A stretch of 53,621 bases of DNA from a virus: the IMG/VR virus record IMGVR_UViG_3300036468_000001; one strand, given 5' to 3'. Each line of letters begins with the position of its first letter. Positions within the stretch are counted from its first letter, which is position 1. The position numbers were made by a program, and so were the translations under genes. Below, piece after piece: positions 25,058-44,072 of the stretch. The notes beneath the pieces are model-generated. The model searched no databases. It saw only the letters and a list, made by a program, of their open reading frames with translations, and had not been told where the DNA came from.

Positions 25058-26236
25058 ATGAAAAAGCTAATCGTATTTCTCGCTTCGCTGTACATCGCCG
25101 CAACGTATGGCGCGACTACCGTCCCTATTCAATTGCTCAATTCGAGCGGGTCGACTTCGGGGCAGGCGATTGTTTCAACCGGCGCTTCCAGCGCGCCAGC
25201 GTGGGGAAACGTCGCAGCGACCACGCTAGCCGCGCAGGCCGCGAATACGGTAGTGGCGAACGTGACCGGCTCGTCTGCATCGCCGACGGCTTTTGTCATG
25301 CCAAGTTGCAGTGCGACTTCGAATGCACTCACATATACCTCGGGCGCAGGTTTCACCTGCAACACCACGCTTAACGCGACCACGCTTCTCAATAGTTCCT
25401 GGGCCGCGCCCGGCACTATTGGCAGTGCCACACCGAGCAGCGGTGCATTCACGACGCTCAGTGCGAGCAGTACGGTCAGTGGTAGCGGGTTCAGCACCTA
25501 TCTGGCTTCGCCGCCGGCGATTGGCGGTACTGCCGCGGCTCCGGGCACATTCACAACTGTCACCGGCACGTCAGCCGTTATTTCGAATGGTTTGACCAGT
25601 GGGAATTCGATATCCGTATCGTCCACGTCAAACACGAGTAACGGCGCATCGATCCTGTTGACGGGCAATGGAGCGACTACCCCGAACAAATCAATTCGGG
25701 CGTTTAACGGAGCGTTCCAGATCGTGAATTCCGCGTCATCGGCCGTGATTGCATCGGTCGACGACTCCGGAGACCTAGTGACGACGGGATACATCTCGCC
25801 GTCTCAAACTGGCGGCATCGTCGGAACGACGACTAACAACAGCGCCAATGCCGGAAGTGTCGGCGAGTACGTATCCAGCACTATCGCTGCCGGTTCGGCT
25901 GTTACTTTGACGAATGGGACGGCTGCAAACGTAACCTCTATTTCGCTCACTGCGGGCGATTGGGATGTGTTCGGAACTGTTTGCTTTACGCTGGGCAGCG
26001 GCAATACGACGTATGCCGTCATCGGTTCAATTAGCCTTACGAGCGCCACCTACAACTTTCTGCCGGGCTTTTATTTGCCCGGGGTTCCTACAGGCACAAC
26101 TGTAGAGTGCGCCGCGGCAGGAATGATCCGCGAATCGTTTTCGTCCACGACACCGGTATATCTGGTAGCGGGGGCGAGTTGGGCTTCGGGAAGTGCGGCT
26201 GCTTACGGTTTTATCAGTGCGCGCCGTCGTCGCTAG
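25058..26236 (+). CDS. tail fibre-like Ser/Thr/Gly/Ala-rich protein with a signal-peptide-like N-terminus
   Basis: Starts 1 nt after the tailspike stop. N-terminus MKKLIVFLASLYIAATYG. Repetitive beta-rich composition. Confidence 0.6.
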   Translation: MKKLIVFLASLYIAATYGATTVPIQLLNSSGSTSGQAIVSTGASSAPAWGNVAATTLAAQAANTVVANVTGSSASPTAFVMPSCSATSNALTYTSGAGFTCNTTLNATTLLNSSWAAPGTIGSATPSSGAFTTLSASSTVSGSGFSTYLASPPAIGGTAAAPGTFTTVTGTSAVISNGLTSGNSISVSSTSNTSNGASILLTGNGATTPNKSIRAFNGAFQIVNSASSAVIASVDDSGDLVTTGYISPSQTGGIVGTTTNNSANAGSVGEYVSSTIAAGSAVTLTNGTAANVTSISLTAGDWDVFGTVCFTLGSGNTTYAVIGSISLTSATYNFLPGFYLPGVPTGTTVECAAAGMIRESFSSTTPVYLVAGASWASGSAAAYGFISARRRR

Positions 26237-26741: not shown

Positions 26742-27869
26742 TCATGCACTTCGTGCCTTGATTTCGGTCCACTCTTTGCCCCGTGAATCGCGGTACAGAG
26801 CCGTCATCTCGGCTGATTTGTGCCCCAGAAGCGCCTGGGCGAACTCGGCGCCGTACTCGTCAGCGTAGAGGCGGGCGGCTAGAGACCGGATCTCATGAAA
26901 CGTCGGCGGAGTCTTGCCCGGATCGACCGCAATCTTTGCCTGGTCACGGAAAGTTGCAAAAACGTCTGAAAAGCTGACCACATGAGGGCTTCCGCCTGGT
27001 CTTGCTGTGCCAACATGCCGCAGGTGATGGATCACGTGCTTGGAGACGATGTTGTCGCGGCATTCCCGTATTACATCGCCGATCGTCAGGCCATCCAGCG
27101 CCTTCAGGCCGACGGTCAGAGGGATTTTCAATCTCGTCCGGCCCTGACTCTTTTTCTGTTCGACGTAGAGGAACCCGTCCTTCACGTGGTCGAACAGCAT
27201 GCTTTTTACATCCTCCCGGCGCTGCGCCGTGACCAGTGCCAACATGAAGGCGCGGGCGGCCCAACCCATCAGCGGATCCTTTCTGGCCTCCGCAACGACC
27301 TTCCAGAAGTCCTCGAGGGTCAATCTTGAACGCAGGACATCTCCTTTCGTTCTCTTTACGGACGAAACCGGATTCTTTCCGGCCTCAATCAAACCCTCTC
27401 CAATCGCCTCGTTGAAGAGGTCGACCAGACGGCTGCGCATCTGCACGGCGTAGGTGTCACTCACCTCCGCGGCGAGCTTCTTCAGAAAGTCCCTGATATC
27501 CCTCGGCGTCACGACATTGACGCGCTGCGCCGCGAAAGGCGCGCGTTTGATGGCCTTCAGGTAGCTGCTGACGGTCGAGCGGGAACCTTCGTTTTCCGTC
27601 CTCTTGGCATAGATAGCCTCGTACTCATCACACCACTGGGAGACGGTCTTCATGCCGCCGTCGATCTTATTAATGAGCGCAACTGCTCCCTTGCGGCGCT
27701 CCAGCTCGGCGTTCGCGGCGCGAGCCTCTGATGAAGCGACCTTGAAGTCGCGCCCCAGACCATACGTCGCCTTGGTTTCCGGGTGCCGGAACCAGTAATA
27801 GCCCTTGGAGTTCTTATACAAGTTGTCGGGCCAGTTACGGCGCGCCGCGATTCGTCGTCTAGCTGCCAT
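26742..27869 (-). CDS. int: tyrosine integrase, lambda Int-like
   Basis: HEIRSLAARLY...LLGHKSAEMTALYRDSRGKEWTEI closely parallels the lambda Int C-terminus. AAGGA RBS. Confidence 0.9.
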   Translation of the reverse strand: MAARRRIAARRNWPDNLYKNSKGYYWFRHPETKATYGLGRDFKVASSEARAANAELERRKGAVALINKIDGGMKTVSQWCDEYEAIYAKRTENEGSRSTVSSYLKAIKRAPFAAQRVNVVTPRDIRDFLKKLAAEVSDTYAVQMRSRLVDLFNEAIGEGLIEAGKNPVSSVKRTKGDVLRSRLTLEDFWKVVAEARKDPLMGWAARAFMLALVTAQRREDVKSMLFDHVKDGFLYVEQKKSQGRTRLKIPLTVGLKALDGLTIGDVIRECRDNIVSKHVIHHLRHVGTARPGGSPHVVSFSDVFATFRDQAKIAVDPGKTPPTFHEIRSLAARLYADEYGAEFAQALLGHKSAEMTALYRDSRGKEWTEIKARSA

Positions 27870-28080
27870 TTGCCATCCTTTCGATACGATCGGCAACCGG
27901 GTCGAAATACTCCGCGTCTGGACGGCAGAAATACTCGCGTCCGACCTTACGGGGTACCGGACGGATCCGCCCGTTGCGTATCCAGTTGAGCAGGGTATTG
28001 CGGTGAGGTTTGTGCTCGCCGAACACATTTTCCGCCCATGACGAGAGTGGTATCAGTTGCGCTGCCATTTCACACCCCAT
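27859..28080 (-). CDS. xis: excisionase
   Basis: NTLLNWIRNGRIRPVPRKVGREYF resembles lambda Xis ETVRRWVRECRIFPPPVKDGREYL. Overlaps the int start. An alternative start lies at 28068. Confidence 0.7.
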   Translation of the reverse strand: MGCEMAAQLIPLSSWAENVFGEHKPHRNTLLNWIRNGRIRPVPRKVGREYFCRPDAEYFDPVADRIERMANGS

Positions 28081-30676: not shown

Positions 30677-31383
30677 GACTCTTGCTCCTTCGCCTCGCGG
30701 GCGATTCGGTTGACCTGTCTGGTGATTGCGCCCTTGAGTTGGACCAGCTTGGCAAGCTCCGGCGAGCGCGACCGGGGATGATTGCGACGTGCGAGCTCGC
30801 CGCGGTGCACGAGCTCGAGCGCGTCGAGCGTGATCTTTTCGAGTTCCGCCGTGCGCCGGCCGGGCAGGAAGCAGACCACATGGCCTTTCGGGATCGGACC
30901 GTTCGCGGCTTCCCACACCAGACGGTGCACGCCAACCCAACGTCGCGCCGGCACCGGGTGGTCGTCGTTCGTTTTCTGCTCGAGGTAGCCGTCTTTGCTG
31001 ATTCGATACGATCCGATCGGCACGTAGTTGTGCTGCGCCGCGCCGCTCATCGAGCCTTTCTTGAACTGTGTACGACGAGAATTCGGATGAGTGCCGCAGA
31101 TACCCTTGACACCTTTATTCCATGACGTCTGGCCTGACTTGAACCGCGTCGAGCCTCCACGCTGGCCATCTGTACGGCCCGCGAGCGGTCCCGCAAGATA
31201 GGCTTCAGACTTGCGCAAGCCCATTCCGAGTGCTTTCTGGTAGACGCGCCCGACACTTAGACCCATTGACGCGGCCAGAGTCGGCGTGTGCGCATCTGGA
31301 TACTCAAGCGTCAGACGTTCCTTTTCTGCTTCGGTCCACTTGTGGCGGGGCGCGGTAGTCGATCCGGGTTTGCGCTTCGTCAT
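30673..31383 (-). CDS. HNH_3-like homing-endonuclease-type DNA-binding protein (catalytic motif possibly degenerate)
   Basis: GYLEQK...WVGVHRLVWEAANGPIPKGHVV pattern. ATGA overlap with the DUF1643 gene. Confidence 0.5.
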   Translation of the reverse strand: MTKRKPGSTTAPRHKWTEAEKERLTLEYPDAHTPTLAASMGLSVGRVYQKALGMGLRKSEAYLAGPLAGRTDGQRGGSTRFKSGQTSWNKGVKGICGTHPNSRRTQFKKGSMSGAAQHNYVPIGSYRISKDGYLEQKTNDDHPVPARRWVGVHRLVWEAANGPIPKGHVVCFLPGRRTAELEKITLDALELVHRGELARRNHPRSRSPELAKLVQLKGAITRQVNRIAREAKEQES

Positions 31384-31865
31384 GCTGCCCACTCCATGAG
31401 TTGAGTGTCATACCCGAGCATCAGCGGATGCTTCGGGTCACCTCCCTTTGTGAAGCCGAATATCTTCACTGGCTTGCCGGCGCCGAGAATGCGATGCGCC
31501 AGCGTGTCGAGATGTGGCCGCAGCGCCGCGGGCAACTTCGTGCGATCTCCCCAGCACGGGACAAGCAGGTCCGCGTCCGCGATGATCTGGCCAAGATGCA
31601 TGTCGTTGAATGGGCCGACCGGATCGAGAACTCGCGAGAGCTCGCGAACGTCGCGCGCACGGTATGCGAACGGGTTGCCGGCGACGTACTTGCGCGCGCC
31701 GAGCAAACGCCCGAAGCCGCGCCACTTCATGTCGGTCTGGTCCGGGATGATCGAATCCGCCCACGACGGATTAACGCCAAAGAACGCGACCACGATTCCG
31801 ACAAGCTGCAACTCGCGCTCGAGGCGGTACCGGTATGTGCCACATTCGCTGATGATCGCGGTCAT
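31380..31865 (-). CDS. DUF1643 family protein
   Basis: CGTYRYRLER...FFGVNPSWAD...GNPFAYRA...PCWGD...GDPKHPL matches the DUF1643 pattern as I recall it. ATGA overlap with the RT stop. Confidence 0.65.
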   Translation of the reverse strand: MTAIISECGTYRYRLERELQLVGIVVAFFGVNPSWADSIIPDQTDMKWRGFGRLLGARKYVAGNPFAYRARDVRELSRVLDPVGPFNDMHLGQIIADADLLVPCWGDRTKLPAALRPHLDTLAHRILGAGKPVKIFGFTKGGDPKHPLMLGYDTQLMEWAA

Positions 31866-33187
31866 TGTTTGACCTTCGTGCGGTATGTCTGCGTGAACGT
31901 CCTGTTGACGACGTGTCCTCGGTACCGAACGACGTTCGCGATTCGAGCGCGATCGTGATGGCTCGCCGGCGCCTGACCGAGCAAGCCGAAATAGCTGTTA
32001 GCGACAGGCAGGAAGTCTCCTTCATTGACCTGCGCCACGCGGCGAATTGCTTCGTTCACAGTGCGGCGGCGCGTCGTGCGGGACCATGGCTTGATCACGT
32101 GGCCGACGAAGTCCACGCCGCGCGCGATCGGCTGAAGCACGGTTTTCTTCGGATTGAGCCGAACACCGAGGCGCGCCGGCAGGAAAGCGTCGACCTCGGC
32201 CAGCACCGCGTTTAGCCAGTCGGCAGACGGGTGCAGGAACAGGAAATCGTCCACATAGCGCACGTAGTAACGCGCGCCGAGCTGGTGTTTTGAGCGCTGG
32301 TCGAGCACGTCGAGATAGACGTTGGCGAAGAACTGTGACGACAGGTTGCCGATCGGCAGGCCGAGATGATCCGGCTGGCTAGTCAGGCGCTTGTGCGGCG
32401 GCACACGATCAATCAGCACCGGGTCGCCGCGGAACTCGAAGTTGGTTCGCGGATCGTGCATAAGCACGGTGTCGGTCAGATTCATCCACCACGCTTCATT
32501 GATCTTGCGAGCGAGCAGCTCGCGCAGCTTCAGTTTGTCGATGCTGACGAAGAAATTCGCAATGTCGCACTTCAGGTAGTAAGCCGGCCGAGACCAGTTC
32601 TGCGTAATGCTCCGGATCATCGCCTCGAGCTGCTCTGCGGCATAGAGCGTGCCGCGACCAGGAATGCATGCGCAACTATTGGCGATGAAAGAGTTTTCGA
32701 AGCGCGCCGCGATGCGGTTGTAAAGCAGGTGGTGAACGACGCGATCGCGAAAGTCCGCCGCCCACACTTCGCGCGCCTTCGGACGTGTCACGACGAAACA
32801 GATCGAGCGGCCCGGCTGATACGAGCCGTCGATCAGTTCGTCATGCAGCTGCGACAGGTTACGTTCGAGGTTCTGTTCGAATTCGAGTGCGTTTCGCGTG
32901 TTTCGCTTTGTGCGACGGCAGTCGAAGTACGCGAGAACGAGCTCTTCGAACGTGAGAGCCTCGCTTCCAGCATCGTAATAATCTGCGGACCGCGCGAACC
33001 CGGCCTTTGTTGTTCTTGTTGTTCGCATTCTGGTTGCCATTTGTGAAATTCTGGTACCAAGCGTTGTTGGCCGAGTACTGCGTTCATTCGCACTATCTAC
33101 GTCGCCAGGCCGAAGGCTATCGCCGATCGACGAGGAAACTGCACCAGACCGATCCCGGTTACTCCCGGTGGTATCTGTGATGTGCAT
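31862..33187 (-). CDS. DGR reverse transcriptase (start uncertain: 33187, 33040 or 33028; longest ORF begins at 33289)
   Basis: Carries the DGR-RT motifs PIGNLSSQFFANVYLD and YVRYVDDFLF. An AAGGA RBS precedes the ATG at 33187. There is no in-frame ATG/GTG/TTG between the TR and the conserved core. Confidence 0.85.
   Translation of the reverse strand: MHITDTTGSNRDRSGAVSSSIGDSLRPGDVDSANERSTRPTTLGTRISQMATRMRTTRTTKAGFARSADYYDAGSEALTFEELVLAYFDCRRTKRNTRNALEFEQNLERNLSQLHDELIDGSYQPGRSICFVVTRPKAREVWAADFRDRVVHHLLYNRIAARFENSFIANSCACIPGRGTLYAAEQLEAMIRSITQNWSRPAYYLKCDIANFFVSIDKLKLRELLARKINEAWWMNLTDTVLMHDPRTNFEFRGDPVLIDRVPPHKRLTSQPDHLGLPIGNLSSQFFANVYLDVLDQRSKHQLGARYYVRYVDDFLFLHPSADWLNAVLAEVDAFLPARLGVRLNPKKTVLQPIARGVDFVGHVIKPWSRTTRRRTVNEAIRRVAQVNEGDFLPVANSYFGLLGQAPASHHDRARIANVVRYRGHVVNRTFTQTYRTKVKQ
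32983..33083 (-). repeat. DGR template repeat (TR)
   Basis: A 101-nt ungapped match to three VRs, with all but one difference at TR adenines. It is AAC/AAT-rich in the VR frame, and an in-frame TGA lies just 5' of it. Confidence 0.9.
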
Positions 33188-33237
33188 GTCGGTATCCTTG
33201 TGAGATAGCGGTGCGACCAGATTAAATCGCATAGACC

Positions 33238-33609
33238 TCACCGCCTTGACGATGAAGTAACGAGCGACGATGCGGATTGCTTCTTCCATCCACCGGCCTG
33301 TTTGCCCACTTGTTCGGTTAGCGCGATCGCGGCCGCGTATTGCTTGGTCGCGATGAACCGCATGTCTCTGGACAACCTGAGCAGAAGATTGACCACTTCA
33401 AGACGCTCGAGCAGATCGTTCAGATGCGGTACCTTGTCCATTGCCGCATTGGCGCGAAAGATCAGCGTTACGATCTTCAGCGTCTCCGCTCGAATCTCTC
33501 CGCCGAGCGATTGCTTGAAATCGCGCGGCATATGGCGAGTCGATTCCGTGACCTCTCGGAAGAGGTCGTACGCGACCTTGTAAATGGGCAGGGCGGTGGT
33601 AATGGCCAT
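33238..33609 (-). CDS. avd: Avd-like accessory variability determinant (four-helix-bundle protein)
   Basis: 123 aa, basic and helical. LPIYKVAYDLFREV...MPRDFKQSLGGEIR resembles the Avd / 23S-rRNA-IVS protein family. It sits between the target gene and the TR. Confidence 0.8.
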   Translation of the reverse strand: MAITTALPIYKVAYDLFREVTESTRHMPRDFKQSLGGEIRAETLKIVTLIFRANAAMDKVPHLNDLLERLEVVNLLLRLSRDMRFIATKQYAAAIALTEQVGKQAGGWKKQSASSLVTSSSRR

Positions 33610-33625
33610 GGTTAATTTTTAAATT

Positions 33626-34213
33626 TCAAAAGTCCAATCTGCGGACCGCGCGAACCCGGCCTTTGTCGCTCTTGCCGCCCGCATCCTGGGTGCCACTCGT
33701 GAAATACTGGCACCAAGCGTCGCCGGCCGAGTACTGCGTAGACGTCCAGTGCCACTCTCGGATGAACAGGTCAGGAACGTTCGCGTAAAGCACCGCGCTT
33801 TCTCGCTTCGAGGGTACGTAATAGTCACGGTGACATTCGAACTCCACCTCGCTGCACTTGCGAGCTGCAGGATGATCGCCGGTGGCAATCAGTGCCTGCG
33901 TGTTTGCGTATCCGTCGAACTCGTCCTTGGCGCCCGGCACGTCAACGCCGTAGCCTCCCCACTCCACGTCGCCGAAGGCGCCGATCGTGTCGGGGGAGAT
34001 GATCAACCAGTACGGCCGGCCATCGGCATGCCGCGCGAGGCCACCATTGAACCCGCCTTGGCCGGGCCAAACTTCACCGATACGCGGAACGCTGCGCACA
34101 GCTTCTTCGGTACGGCCCATGACCTTGTCGAGCCATGCGTTGATGGCAACATCCTTGGGCACGCTCAGCTTGCCGCCGTGGAACGGAACTTCGATTTCGC
34201 TTGTGTTGCTCAT
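33626..34213 (-). CDS. DGR variable protein 1 (DUF1566 / C-type-lectin-fold-like C-terminus)
   Basis: GGAGA RBS. The C-terminus WHWTSTQYSAGDAWCQYFTSGTQDAGGKSDKGRVRAVRRLDF contains VR1. Confidence 0.85.
   Translation of the reverse strand: MSNTSEIEVPFHGGKLSVPKDVAINAWLDKVMGRTEEAVRSVPRIGEVWPGQGGFNGGLARHADGRPYWLIISPDTIGAFGDVEWGGYGVDVPGAKDEFDGYANTQALIATGDHPAARKCSEVEFECHRDYYVPSKRESAVLYANVPDLFIREWHWTSTQYSAGDAWCQYFTSGTQDAGGKSDKGRVRAVRRLDF
33639..33739 (-). repeat. DGR variable repeat VR1
   Basis: 15 mismatches to the TR, all at TR adenines. Confidence 0.9.
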
Positions 34214-34275
34214 TGATGCTTTCTCCAATGGTTCGATGCGATCGGTCGTGATGCGCCTTCGAAATGATTGAATTT

Positions 34276-34896
34276 CTAAATTTTGACTCTGCGGACCGCG
34301 CGAAGCCGGCCTTTGCCGTCCTTGCCGTCCGCACCCTGGTAGCCATCTGCGAAACCCTGGTACCAAGCGCTGAGGGCCGAGTACTGCGTGCTTGTCCAAT
34401 ACCACTCGTCGGCGAAGGACTCTGCGCCGCCTTCACGGAACAGTTCGACGGGCGTCTGGCCCGGCAGGTGGATCGAATACGGATAGCCGACCGGCAGACT
34501 GCTCGGGTTGTCGCCGCTGCGGTAGACGTAGTTCTCTTCGGTGGTCGGCTTGAAGCCGCGGTAGAGCAGCTCGACCTGATCGCGCGCGCCGATGTGCCAG
34601 TCGTCGAAACCGCCGATACGCAGCTCGAGCACCTGTTGTGCGATCTCGCTGCCGGCCTCGGCCATCGCCTTGGTATTGGCGAGTCCGTCGAAGAAACTGT
34701 CGGCTCCCTCGATCAGCTTGTAATCGGGATGCCAGATGACCGGACCGAGATCGCCTTCGTTCTTCGGCGCGACGACTTGTGCGAACACGTCACCGTTGAA
34801 GGTGATGATGCCGGCGAAGTAACCGCCTTCCCACGGCGTGCCGAAAACGGTCGGAACTTCCTGCTTTGCCAGTGGCAGATTTGAGATTGCGTTCAT
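34276..34896 (-). CDS. DGR variable protein 2 (paralog of variable protein 1)
   Basis: GGAG RBS. The C-terminus WYWTSTQYSALSAWYQGFADGYQGADGKDGKGRLRAVRRVKI contains VR2. Confidence 0.85.
   Translation of the reverse strand: MNAISNLPLAKQEVPTVFGTPWEGGYFAGIITFNGDVFAQVVAPKNEGDLGPVIWHPDYKLIEGADSFFDGLANTKAMAEAGSEIAQQVLELRIGGFDDWHIGARDQVELLYRGFKPTTEENYVYRSGDNPSSLPVGYPYSIHLPGQTPVELFREGGAESFADEWYWTSTQYSALSAWYQGFADGYQGADGKDGKGRLRAVRRVKI
34289..34389 (-). repeat. DGR variable repeat VR2
   Basis: 16 mismatches at TR adenines, plus one C/G difference in the GC-rich 3' end. Confidence 0.9.
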
Positions 34897-41196: not shown

Positions 41197-41336
41197 CAGC
41201 AGCCTCTTCGTTCGTCGGCGACACCTTCGCCGATGATGTCGGCGGCGAATTCGCGCAACAGATGCTCAGTCAGGGCACCCGCGCCACCTTCGGCCAGGCG
41301 CTTCAGTTCGATCAGGTCTTTCGCGATCACCGACAT
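41196..41336 (-). CDS. 46-aa hypothetical protein
   Basis: ATG after GGAG. Fills the gap between neighbouring genes on the same strand. Confidence 0.4.
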   Translation of the reverse strand: MSVIAKDLIELKRLAEGGAGALTEHLLREFAADIIGEGVADERRGC

Positions 41337-41579: not shown

Positions 41580-41616
41580 CACGTTCTCCCGTGAGAACTA
41601 CGAAATAAATAAATTC

Positions 41617-42111
41617 TTAAATTTTGACTCTGCGGACCGCGCGAACCCGGCCTTTGACGTTCTTGCCGTCCGCAAACTGGAAGCCATATGCGAAACCCTG
41701 GCACCAAGCGCCGTAGGCCGAGGACTGCGTGCTCGACCAGTACCAGGAGGGCGCAAATTTTTCGGCGATCGTCGCGTAGCAGAGGTTCAGCTCACGCTGG
41801 GCCGGCAGATAGAAATCGGTGTGTCCGTCTTTCGAGTACTCCGCGGCCCAGGCGGCGGCCGGGTGCTTCGAAGTCGCGCCAAGAAGTGCCCGCGTGTTCG
41901 CGGCACCGTCGAGCCGGCTGTCGCACTCCGGAACCTTCATGCCGTACGGACCCCACTCGAAATCCATGCCTTCGTCGAGCGAAGCGATCAGGTGGTAGTC
42001 GGGCGCGTCGCCTTGGCCGGGCATCAGGCCGGCGTAAATGCCGCCTTGGCCCTCCCAATAGACGCCAAGGCGTGGTGCGACGAGAACGGGTTTGTCTTGG
42101 ACTTCGGACAT
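41617..42111 (-). CDS. DGR variable protein 3 (remote paralog of variable proteins 1 and 2)
   Basis: GGAG RBS. The C-terminus WYWSSTQSSAYGAWCQGFAYGFQFADGKNVKGRVRAVRRVKI contains VR3. Confidence 0.85.
   Translation of the reverse strand: MSEVQDKPVLVAPRLGVYWEGQGGIYAGLMPGQGDAPDYHLIASLDEGMDFEWGPYGMKVPECDSRLDGAANTRALLGATSKHPAAAWAAEYSKDGHTDFYLPAQRELNLCYATIAEKFAPSWYWSSTQSSAYGAWCQGFAYGFQFADGKNVKGRVRAVRRVKI
41630..41730 (-). repeat. DGR variable repeat VR3 (about 8.6 kb from the TR)
   Basis: 18 mismatches to the TR, all at TR adenines. Confidence 0.9.
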
Positions 42112-43111: not shown

Positions 43112-43765
43112 TCAATGTCGAATATTTTTTGATCGCTTTTCCCCGACTCTTCGCGCCGCACGTTTTTCCTCGGTACGTGTGGCGAGGTGGCTCTCAGCAT
43201 CCTCCATGGCTCTCGCGGCCTGCTCGCTGATGCTCTGCATCGCGGGTGAGGACTTTACCGCCTCGTCTTTCTTCAGAGGGGTCAGTTTGCCACTTTCCGG
43301 CGCTCTGAGTTGGGAAAAAAGCACGCGCACTGCATCAAAAGTTTCACGCGGAGCGTCTCGTTTGTATGCCTCCCGGATAGCCGCAATCGCGTCCTGAACA
43401 TAGGCCGGCAAAAGCGCATCCACATACTGTTCGGCTTGAGATCGGGCTTCCTCTTCAGTGAGTGAAGACTGATTTTTTGCCTCAAATACGGCGGTTGGAA
43501 CCTTGTTTCTGTCGAGCTGCACGTAGTCGATGCTGTGCTTTGGCTCGCGGCCAGTCAGCAGCCAGTCGGTGGTGACATTGAACTCGTGCGCCAACTTGGC
43601 GAGGGTCCCCATCTCTGGCGTCGATTTTTTCCCCAGGATTCGGTTGATGGTGGGCTGTGGAACACCCGTCTTTTTGCCGAGCGCACTTTGGCCGCCGCGC
43701 CCCCTGTACAGCGGGTTTGCCTGCATTAGTTCGTTCAGTCGATCGCCTACATCATCTTCTTTCAT
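43112..43765 (-). CDS. cI-like XRE-family HTH repressor (no S24 peptidase signature seen)
   Basis: QSALGKKTGVPQPTINRILGKK...LAKLAHEFNVTTDWLLTG. Divergent from the cro-like gene. Confidence 0.7.
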   Translation of the reverse strand: MKEDDVGDRLNELMQANPLYRGRGGQSALGKKTGVPQPTINRILGKKSTPEMGTLAKLAHEFNVTTDWLLTGREPKHSIDYVQLDRNKVPTAVFEAKNQSSLTEEEARSQAEQYVDALLPAYVQDAIAAIREAYKRDAPRETFDAVRVLFSQLRAPESGKLTPLKKDEAVKSSPAMQSISEQAARAMEDAESHLATRTEEKRAARRVGEKRSKNIRH

Positions 43766-43772
43766 AAGCCCG

Positions 43773-43801
43773 ACTATGCAAGGGTGAATAGATCGGGTCA
43801 A
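43773..43801 (-). promoter_or_regulatory. PRM-like promoter candidate for the cI-like gene (near-leaderless)
   Basis: Minus strand TTGACC-N17-CATAGT, ending 7 nt before the ATG at 43765. Confidence 0.35.
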
Positions 43802-43807
43802 AGTTCG

Positions 43808-43848
43808 ATTCATTCGCGCATTGACAAATATTCGTTCGCGTATAGAAT
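43808..43848 (+). promoter_or_regulatory. PR-like early-right promoter with an operator-like 19-mer
   Basis: TTGACA (43821-26), N16, TAGAAT (43843-48). The inverted copy of the 19-mer lies at 43808-43826. Confidence 0.45.
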
Positions 43849-43856
43849 TGGCATTC

Positions 43857-44072
43857 ATGAACACGCTAACTCCCTCCCAGCTGCTTGCCGAGATCAAGTC
43901 GATGACCAAACTCGGCGAAAAGGCTATTGGCGACCGGATTGGCTGTTCTCAGCCGACGGTCAATCGAATTCTCAACGGTCAATCGGACTGCAAGTCCAGC
44001 ACGTTGATGGCGATCCTGCGGTGGCACGAAGAGCTGCGTGCAGCTGAAGAATCCGGCGAGAAGGTGGCTTAA
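43857..44072 (+). CDS. Cro-like HTH regulator
   Basis: GEKAIGDRIGCSQPTVNRILNGQ is an HTH. Divergent from the cI-like gene. The ATG lies about 8 nt after the -10 element. Confidence 0.65.
   Translation: MNTLTPSQLLAEIKSMTKLGEKAIGDRIGCSQPTVNRILNGQSDCKSSTLMAILRWHEELRAAEESGEKVA

Follow-up and report, generated by a model that had tools for sequence, protein, structure and literature searches.

The RT-15 RNA and a conserved helix around the template repeat of a probable phage diversity-generating retroelement

A virus genome of 53,621 nucleotides (nt), IMG/VR record IMGVR_UViG_3300036468_000001 (hereafter the window, by which we mean this whole stretch), very probably carries a structurally intact diversity-generating retroelement (DGR) that would rewrite the ends of three target genes, VP1, VP2 and VP3, in a temperate phage of ~53.6 kb whose host is Burkholderiaceae-like. 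The cassette lies on the minus strand, where VP2 (34276..34896; 206 amino acids, aa), VP1 (33626..34213; 195 aa), avd (33238..33609; 123 aa), a template repeat (TR; 33083-32983; 101 nt) and a reverse transcriptase (RT) gene (31862..33040) follow one another in the order given by a first-pass annotation made from the sequence alone. Between avd and TR lies a structured RNA, RT-15 (Rfam RF03018; 33081..33269, minus strand), and the third target gene, VP3 (41617..42111, minus strand; 164 aa), lies ~8.5 kb upstream of the cassette.

The relationship between TR and the variable repeats (VRs) at the ends of the target genes is that of adenine-specific transfer. Exact ungapped comparison on the minus strand confirmed the pattern observed earlier: VR1 (33739-33639) differs from TR at 15 positions, all of them TR adenines (13 A>G, 1 A>T and 1 A>C), and VR2 (34389-34289) differs at 16 TR adenines and by a G>C change (TR 32999, VR2 34305), the single non-adenine difference over all three VRs. 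Given the 34 adenines among the 101 nt of TR, the chance of every mismatch falling on an adenine is 6e-9 for VR1 and 2e-8 for VR2. The same annotation had named two targets; both are real, but a scan of the whole window that tolerated changes at A revealed a third, non-adjacent one that had been missed, namely, VR3 (41730-41630, minus strand) at the end of VP3, with 18 mismatches, each of them at a TR adenine. In the reading frame of the VRs, 32 of the 34 TR adenines occupy codon position 1 or 2, and TR translates as TQYSANNAWYQNFTNGNQNANNKNNKGRVRAVR. An in-frame TGA (33086-33084), also reported before, directly abuts the 5' end of TR, which has no upstream open reading frame (ORF) of its own in this frame. 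All three VRs end 10-13 nt ahead of the stop codon of their target gene.

The RT (Pfam RVT_1; 392 or 388 aa, depending on whether the ATG at 33040 or that at 33028 is the start) has the Bordetella phage DGR RT (bRT) as its best solved relative (8ub7, E 1.1e-37). In DGR RTs, the motif (I/L/V)GxxxSQ replaces the QG motif of other RTs. Consistent with the earlier remark that the motifs are typical of DGR RTs, the window motif PIGNLSSQFFANVY aligns with PIGSLTSQLFANVY of bRT (PIGNLSSQ and PIGSLTSQ, respectively) and the YVDD box is intact. Judged by the best PDB match and the SQ motif, the enzyme appears to be of the DGR-clade type. The 123-aa ORF, described before as Avd-like, passes the cut-off of the Pfam bAvd family (PF22296; 54.4 bits, cut-off 40), and a PDB sequence search with Avd returned nothing useful.

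The RT gene probably starts within TR. Both in-frame ATGs, 33040 and 33028, lie inside TR, and the first 15-19 codons of RT overlap TR in a frame other than that of the VRs; thus, the 3' half of TR would also encode the N-terminus of RT. No ATG, GTG or TTG is present in the RT frame between the end of TR and the RT domain. The ATG located 58 nt ahead of the TR end is kept in most relatives, and in Pseudomonas-type loci the RT frame opens just 67 nt before the TR end, so that this conserved ATG is the only start candidate. The product of the JGI gene caller is likewise the 388-aa RT. Another ATG, at 32973 just 3' of TR, was rejected as the RT start, being out of frame with the RT domain. The RT frame remains open far upstream through TR and the RT-15 RNA (33289-32983 in the window, 200-660 nt in most relatives among loci L001-L130), because of which the ENA gene caller predicts a 475-aa RT overlapping avd.

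The element belongs to a well-populated, already reported DGR lineage. More than 500 relatives of the RT are found in each of IMG/VR and GTDB, the closest genomic ones in Paraburkholderia, Trinickia and other Burkholderiaceae. The same RT type is found in the isolated Burkholderia phages Magia, vB_E192a and vB_PL1, in the Pseudomonas phages Cruim01, Haboob, phPA-G and LPPA56, and in a Shewanella phage. Among 160 RT-related loci that were fetched, nearly all with an RT of at least 60% identity contain, in this order, two or three small genes with VRs, avd, a spacer of ~190 nt, TR and RT. The VR mismatches in these relatives are almost all at adenines, and many loci have an extra target upstream.

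The spacer between avd and TR corresponds to the RT-15 RNA, which scores 168.6 bits in cmscan against a gathering score of 82. The match is full-length, beginning 31 nt within avd and ending 3 nt within TR, and its parts are a hairpin that covers the avd stop codon (hairpin 1), a linker and a domain of three hairpins. The latter is closed by a helix (33216-33211 with 33093-33088), the 3' strand of which ends 4 nt before TR. In the relatives, located by nhmmer, RT-15 is present in 125 of the 160 loci and always ends at the TR boundary; nearly all of these 125 loci have two or three VRs, and all 125 encode an Avd homologue. By cmscan, RT-15 is found in phage Magia (165.5 bits) and also in a Methylobacter locus, the RT of which is just 47% identical, and is not found in nine more distant DGR loci. 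In an alignment of 120 distinct RT-15 sequences, on which the helix analysis below was also carried out, the Rfam structure leaves 90% of cells paired compared with 33-40% when the partners are slid, and double changes occur in 51 of the 65 pairs. RT-15 is among 19 RT-associated motifs that were described in 2017 with their roles left open, and only one of the 19, RT-10, which is the TR-brt spacer of Bordetella phage BPP-1, was tied to a DGR (Weinberg et al., PMC5737381). The window agrees with the published motif in its full-length match upstream of an RT gene. However, RT-15 was described without a link to DGRs, whereas here its end coincides with the TR boundary in 125 loci and its linker pairs with the 3' edge of TR. 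RT-15 was not named elsewhere in the literature searched.

This pairing forms a conserved, covariation-supported helix that joins the RT-15 linker to the 3' edge of TR. Its 5' strand, UUUAAUCUG (33226-33218, minus strand), which is the proposed primer strand, lies in the linker between hairpin 1 and the three-hairpin domain and has the consensus uUgAAUCUG. Its 3' strand, CAGAUUAUU (32985-32977, minus strand; consensus CAGAUUCAA), comprises the last 3 nt of TR and the next 6 nt. Linker and partner remain complementary in relatives with different sequences, including UUGAAUCUG / CAGAUUCAA, UUCAAUCUG / CAGAUUGGA, CUUGAUCUG / CAGAUCAAG, UUAAAUCUG / CAGAUUUAG, UUUUAUCUG / CAGAUGAAA, UUGAAUCCG / CGGAUUCAA and AUGAAUCCG / CGGAUUCAU. 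Across the alignment, 88.9% of cells are paired in register compared with 27-44% when slid, and the covariation score of 0.253 (at most 0.086 when slid) was reached by none of 500 shuffles. At the pair of alignment columns 70 and 380, for instance, CG occurs 49 times, GC 32, UA 31, AU 4, UG 3 and other combinations once. RNAalifold recovers the CUG/CAG core unaided, stacked beside the RT-15 closing helix, with an invariant unpaired G (G33217) between the two helices. A first RNAalifold run on a longer and gappier alignment did not show the long-range helix, which was seen on the trimmed alignment and in direct pair counts. Since the linker pairs with the 3' edge of TR, the whole TR is looped out, and the RT start codon is enclosed together with it. 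Past the helix, 20-40 nt are variable and bear indels across relatives, and the conserved RT coding sequence follows.

The VRs are distinguished from TR by what follows them. In DGRs, the direction of transfer is set by an initiation of mutagenic homing (IMH) sequence at the 3' end of the VR, which differs from its counterpart at TR (IMH*). The GC-rich end GGCCGGGTTCGCGCGGTCCGCAG, in which the first-pass annotation expected an IMH-like element, is indeed present, but it is common to TR and all three VRs and it is the AT-rich phased flank that sets the VRs apart. The sequences diverge right after the GC-rich end: homology between TR and VR1 extends 3 nt more (ATT), whereas VR2 and VR3 share the next 1 nt (A) only. 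The 3' flanks of VR2 (AGTCAAAATTTAGAAATTCAATCATTT; 34262..34288) and VR3 (AGTCAAAATTTAAGAATTTATTTATTT; 41603..41629) carry phased ATT triplets and are nearly identical, and that of VR1 (ATTGGACTTTTGAAATTTAAAAATTAA; 33612..33638) carries phased (A)TT tracts, all on the minus strand. A family-wide profile (loci L001-L130; 197 distinct VR flanks and 104 TR flanks) revealed four (A)TT triplets with 8-nt spacing, at flank positions 1-3, 8-10, 16-18 and 24-26, with an information content of 1.0-1.5 bits at the TT positions. The autocorrelation of T at lag 8 is 0.36 in VR flanks versus -0.10 in TR flanks, which retain just the first AT of the motif. The VR2 and VR3 flanks match the consensus exactly, and that of VR1 is shifted by 1 nt. 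This phased element, which follows every VR of the window, is the strongest candidate for that part of the IMH which is specific to the acceptor.

The VRs form the C-termini of C-type-lectin/DUF1566 proteins. VP1, VP2 and VP3 are paralogues, and their alignment displays a conserved C-terminal region, W(Y)WTSTQ...GRVRAVRR. VP2 has a DUF1566/Lcl_C-like C-type-lectin fold by a sub-threshold Pfam Lcl_C match (2.8e-6) and by its paralogy with VP3, of which a model was built, and VP1 matches Lcl_C weakly and aligns with VP2 and VP3. A PDB sequence search with VP2 yielded nothing useful. VP3 belongs to PHROG 4245, and its AlphaFold2 model, built on 120 homologues, has a mean confidence (pLDDT) of 95.3. 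In Foldseek searches, the best PDB match of this model is the C-terminal domain of Legionella Lcl (8q4e, 1.4e-5), next comes a Bacteroides fimbrial tip protein (4eps, 8.7e-4), and dozens of C-type lectin-like domains follow. Among viral models, the VP3-type domain is found both in small stand-alone proteins and at the ends of tail-fibre-like proteins. Judged by genome position, VP1-VP3 do not appear to be tail fibres. Upon reading the three sequences, no N-terminal signal peptide or lipobox was found. Around VP3, a near-consensus sigma-70-like promoter (42467-42440, minus strand; TTGACA, 16 nt, TATAGT; 11 of 12 matches) precedes both this gene and a 91-aa ORF (42414-42139) that has no homologues; VP3 may be transcribed separately, possibly in lysogens. 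A 6-bp hairpin (GTTCTC-ACGG-GAGAAC; 41583-41598, minus strand) located ~31 nt past VR3, which is the sole VR with a hairpin nearby, may be the terminator of the VP3 unit.

Among the closest described systems is that of Burkholderia phage Magia (MT701587), the annotation and genome note of which report a potential DGR with Avd, RT and IMH-bearing short targets, genes 47 and 57 (Microbiol Resour Announc 2021, PMC7883833). Its RT is 71% identical to that of the window, and its elements are arranged as in the window, from recombination genes through short lectin-fold target(s), avd, RT-15 RNA, TR and RT to an HNH gene and integrase. Short targets occur both next to the cassette and away from it, as in the window; Magia has one of each (genes 47 and 57). 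However, Magia is a myophage of 44.9 kb, whereas the window has P22-like head genes, 53.6 kb and three targets, and the two genomes share no nucleotide similarity at the megablast level. The RNA element, TR and flank motif are not described in the Magia genome note. By target domain, the window also resembles the Legionella pneumophila DGR and the CLec2-DUF1566 class (category 'd'; Wu et al. 2018, PMC5758913), in line with the match of the VP3 model to the Lcl domain. By contrast, LdtA, the target in Legionella, carries a signal sequence and is a lipoprotein of the surface, whereas the window targets are phage early-region genes without signal peptide or lipobox. Short DUF1566-only targets, as well as multiple and non-adjacent ones, were already described in the 2018 survey (PMC5758913).

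The DGR of BPP-1 (mtd-avd-TR-Sp-brt), the prototype for the mechanism, is the system against which the RNA can be compared. Both elements display adenine-specific transfer from TR to VR, homologous RTs (E 1e-37) with the SQ motif, Avd, a VR at the C-terminus of a C-type-lectin fold, a GC-rich TR/VR 3' end and two adjacent RNA helices flanking TR. They differ in that BPP-1 diversifies a tail-fibre protein, Mtd, whereas the window targets are three small early-operon proteins; in that the structured RNA of BPP-1 (the spacer, Sp; Rfam RT-10) and its primer strand lie 3' of TR, whereas RT-15 lies 5' of it; in that a hairpin follows the VR of BPP-1, whereas the window has phased ATT and no hairpin after VR1 or VR2; and in the overlap of TR with the RT start in the window. 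In the BPP-1 ribonucleoprotein determined by cryo-electron microscopy (cryo-EM), a template:primer duplex of ~10 bp is formed by TR 117-129 with Sp 47-56, and TR G117, the first template base, lies beside the priming nucleotide Sp A56. A second duplex (avd:Sp) is located 2 nt away (1-2 nt); cDNA (complementary DNA) synthesis stops a few nucleotides before this duplex, which is itself required for synthesis.

On this basis, the following mechanism can be proposed. One transcript containing avd, the RT-15 RNA, TR and RT would supply both proteins and the template. RT and Avd would copy the 101-nt TR into cDNA, misincorporating opposite its 34 adenines, and the cDNA would replace the ~100 homologous nt at the ends of VP1, VP2 and the distant VP3, recoding mainly AAC/AAT codons on the ligand-binding face of the small lectin fold. 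The phased ATT element after each VR would mark the acceptor sites. The long-range helix would act as the template:primer duplex, its primer strand (UUGAAUCUG followed by the invariant G) lying ~135 nt upstream of TR. In the window the helix ends at G33218, paired with C32985, and the next template base is G32986; by analogy with BPP-1, either G33218 or G33217 might serve as the priming nucleotide and G32986 of TR as the first base to be copied. Synthesis of cDNA could then be stopped by the RT-15 closing helix, located 4 nt ahead of TR, so that RT-15 would do from the 5' side of TR what the BPP-1 spacer does from its 3' side. The geometry of the RT-15 family seems to fit the cryo-EM description of BPP-1 in its duplex, first templated G and nearby stop duplex, which suggests the same two-helix core with a permuted chain connectivity, the primer strand and accessory hairpins being placed 5' of TR. 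We therefore put forward, tentatively and at slightly less than an even chance, the view that RT-15 is a DGR priming RNA, circularly permuted relative to that of BPP-1, and that acceptors are marked by ATT triplets rather than by a hairpin.

Several observations weigh against this proposal or against the cassette being a working DGR. The priming role of the helix is assigned by analogy to BPP-1. The five pairs nearest the proposed priming site are near-invariant, their support consisting of two compensatory sequences and complementarity; the pair of columns 71 and 379 is an A.C mismatch in 54 of the 120 sequences; and in the window itself 7 of the 9 helix pairs form. No stable hairpin follows VR1 or VR2, unlike in BPP-1, and the DNA folds of these two flanks do not outdo those of shuffled sequences (z-scores of +1.7 and +1.2, respectively). 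A hairpin or cruciform a few nucleotides past the VR, as in BPP-1, Legionella and Treponema, is not universal among DGRs. Moreover, no evident Shine-Dalgarno sequence precedes the ATGs inside TR, the Avd match to NCBIfam DivGenRetAVD (64.5 bits) is under the curated cut-off of 80, and the targets are under the Pfam Lcl_C cut-off. Finally, the consensus sequences of VR1 and VR2 are identical in all seven independent assemblies of the phage, although these are at least 99.94% identical, come from near-clonal samples and represent the consensus only. An alternative to priming is that RT-15 is a cis-regulatory or stability element, the helix controlling RT translation or transcript processing, and that BPP-1-like priming takes place 3' of TR in the RT coding region. 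The position of the RT start codon inside TR, within the loop closed by the helix, would suit such control, and no function was assigned to the RT motifs by Weinberg et al. However, the sequence past the helix is variable with indels, which is consistent with the priming parts lying 5' of TR; no conserved Sp-like structure is visible there in relatives, and a permissive Rfam scan of 32700-33700 detected RT-15 only and nothing 3' of TR. Furthermore, the helix sets a conserved G by a template G, right beside a second helix, as in the active complex of BPP-1. We regard this alternative, the main rival of the priming model, as rather unlikely.

Two further explanations concern the retroelement as a whole, the intact and diversifying DGR being the reading that we favour. 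The cassette could be a fossil that looks intact but no longer diversifies, with VRs that are frozen records of retrohoming and evolve as ordinary genes. The identity of VR1 and VR2 in the seven assemblies would be expected in this case, and decay does occur in the lineage: in a metagenome-assembled genome (GCA_046027835.1; L161, JAQQDT010000017.1, 8688-11624), a relative with 90% identity to the cassette lacks the RT catalytic part, DUF1643 and HNH through a deletion (corresponding to 32653-30780 of the window). This decayed copy still contains avd, two VRs that differ at 12 and 19 adenines, and TR, which has undergone 3 changes. That prophage has a serine recombinase instead of a tyrosine integrase. 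In the window, by contrast, the RT ORF is uninterrupted, with the YVDD and SQ motifs, and avd, RT-15 and TR are all intact and score like those of relatives. The seven assemblies essentially represent one clone from related samples, and a consensus hides minority variants. Moreover, the VP paralogues differ from TR at different adenines, so independent retrohoming events are required. Altogether, a fossil appears improbable. The only single-nucleotide polymorphisms (SNPs) among the assemblies, at 41256 and 34397, are both outside the TR-homologous segments. The latter, the sole SNP near the cassette, is a G>T change on the minus strand present in two short contigs (L167 and L168), and it alters the second W of the VP2 WYW motif 8 nt upstream of VR2. 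Several assemblies break within VP2, probably because of the repeats. It might also be argued that the gene ends are ordinary diverged paralogues next to an unrelated retron or group II intron RT, since the RT has weak matches to the group II, retron and Drt models of NCBIfam. All of these are far under their cut-offs (group II, 91 bits versus 300; retron St85, 43 versus 235), and in the PDB search group II and retron-type RTs reached 1e-5 to 1e-9 (best 1.3e-9), much weaker than the match to bRT; the possibility of a retron or group II enzyme, raised at the outset as a check, was thus not borne out. Indeed, RNAs of group II introns or retrons were absent from the results of the Rfam scan, chance would confine the mismatches of a pair to TR adenines with P ~1e-8 only, and the TR copy has a stop codon just before it and lacks an ORF of its own in the VR frame, leaving this explanation with a negligible probability.

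PHROG scans indicate that the window is a complete temperate phage genome of ~53.6 kb. Genes for terminase, portal, scaffold, major head protein and others are on the plus strand, up to the tail fibre gene (25058-26236). The minus strand then carries integrase (26742-28028), HNH, DUF1643, RT, TR, avd, VP1, VP2, a RecE-like exonuclease, Erf, VP3 and a CI-like repressor (43112-43909), past which replication genes are again on the plus strand. By this layout, the DGR is part of the leftward early operon and is separated from the tail genes. Besides the window (JGI contig Ga0326767_000055), six further assemblies contain this phage; their contigs start at different points, which indicates that the genome is circular or terminally redundant. 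When 20 kb were compared with INPHARED by megablast, only one match (72%, 535 bp) was obtained, and no tRNAs that could give a clue to att or the host were found in the window. The RT stop codon overlaps the DUF1643 start (ATGA, 31862-31865) and DUF1643 overlaps the HNH gene (31380-31392), which suggests that the three genes are translationally coupled. DUF1643 and HNH were considered as DGR accessory genes and rejected, because they are present in just 8 and 12 of the 160 related loci, respectively, and thus are not part of the DGR.

As a DGR, the element is ordinary: tens of thousands have been catalogued and the sister element in Magia is published. What goes beyond published work, namely, the assignment of RT-15 to the RNA of a DGR, the helix enclosing TR, the RT start within TR and the VR-specific phased motif, holds for the lineage as a whole. 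An orphan Rfam motif is thereby assigned to a definite position within a DGR, with a role there that can be tested. The clade is populous, includes cultivable Burkholderia and Pseudomonas phages, and has as its targets small early-operon lectin-fold proteins, not tail fibres. This raises the question of what a phage gains by hypermutating such proteins when they lack a signal peptide; candidate roles of VP1-VP3 are host takeover, exclusion of other phages, anti-defence and loosely attached receptor binding. For the mechanism of diversification, the cis-priming model of BPP-1 can be tested against this lineage as a natural permutation, with the same two-helix core in another strand order. If the proposed role of RT-15 is correct, cis-priming by a two-helix core would be the conserved principle of reverse transcription in DGRs, and the order of the RNA segments would be free to vary.

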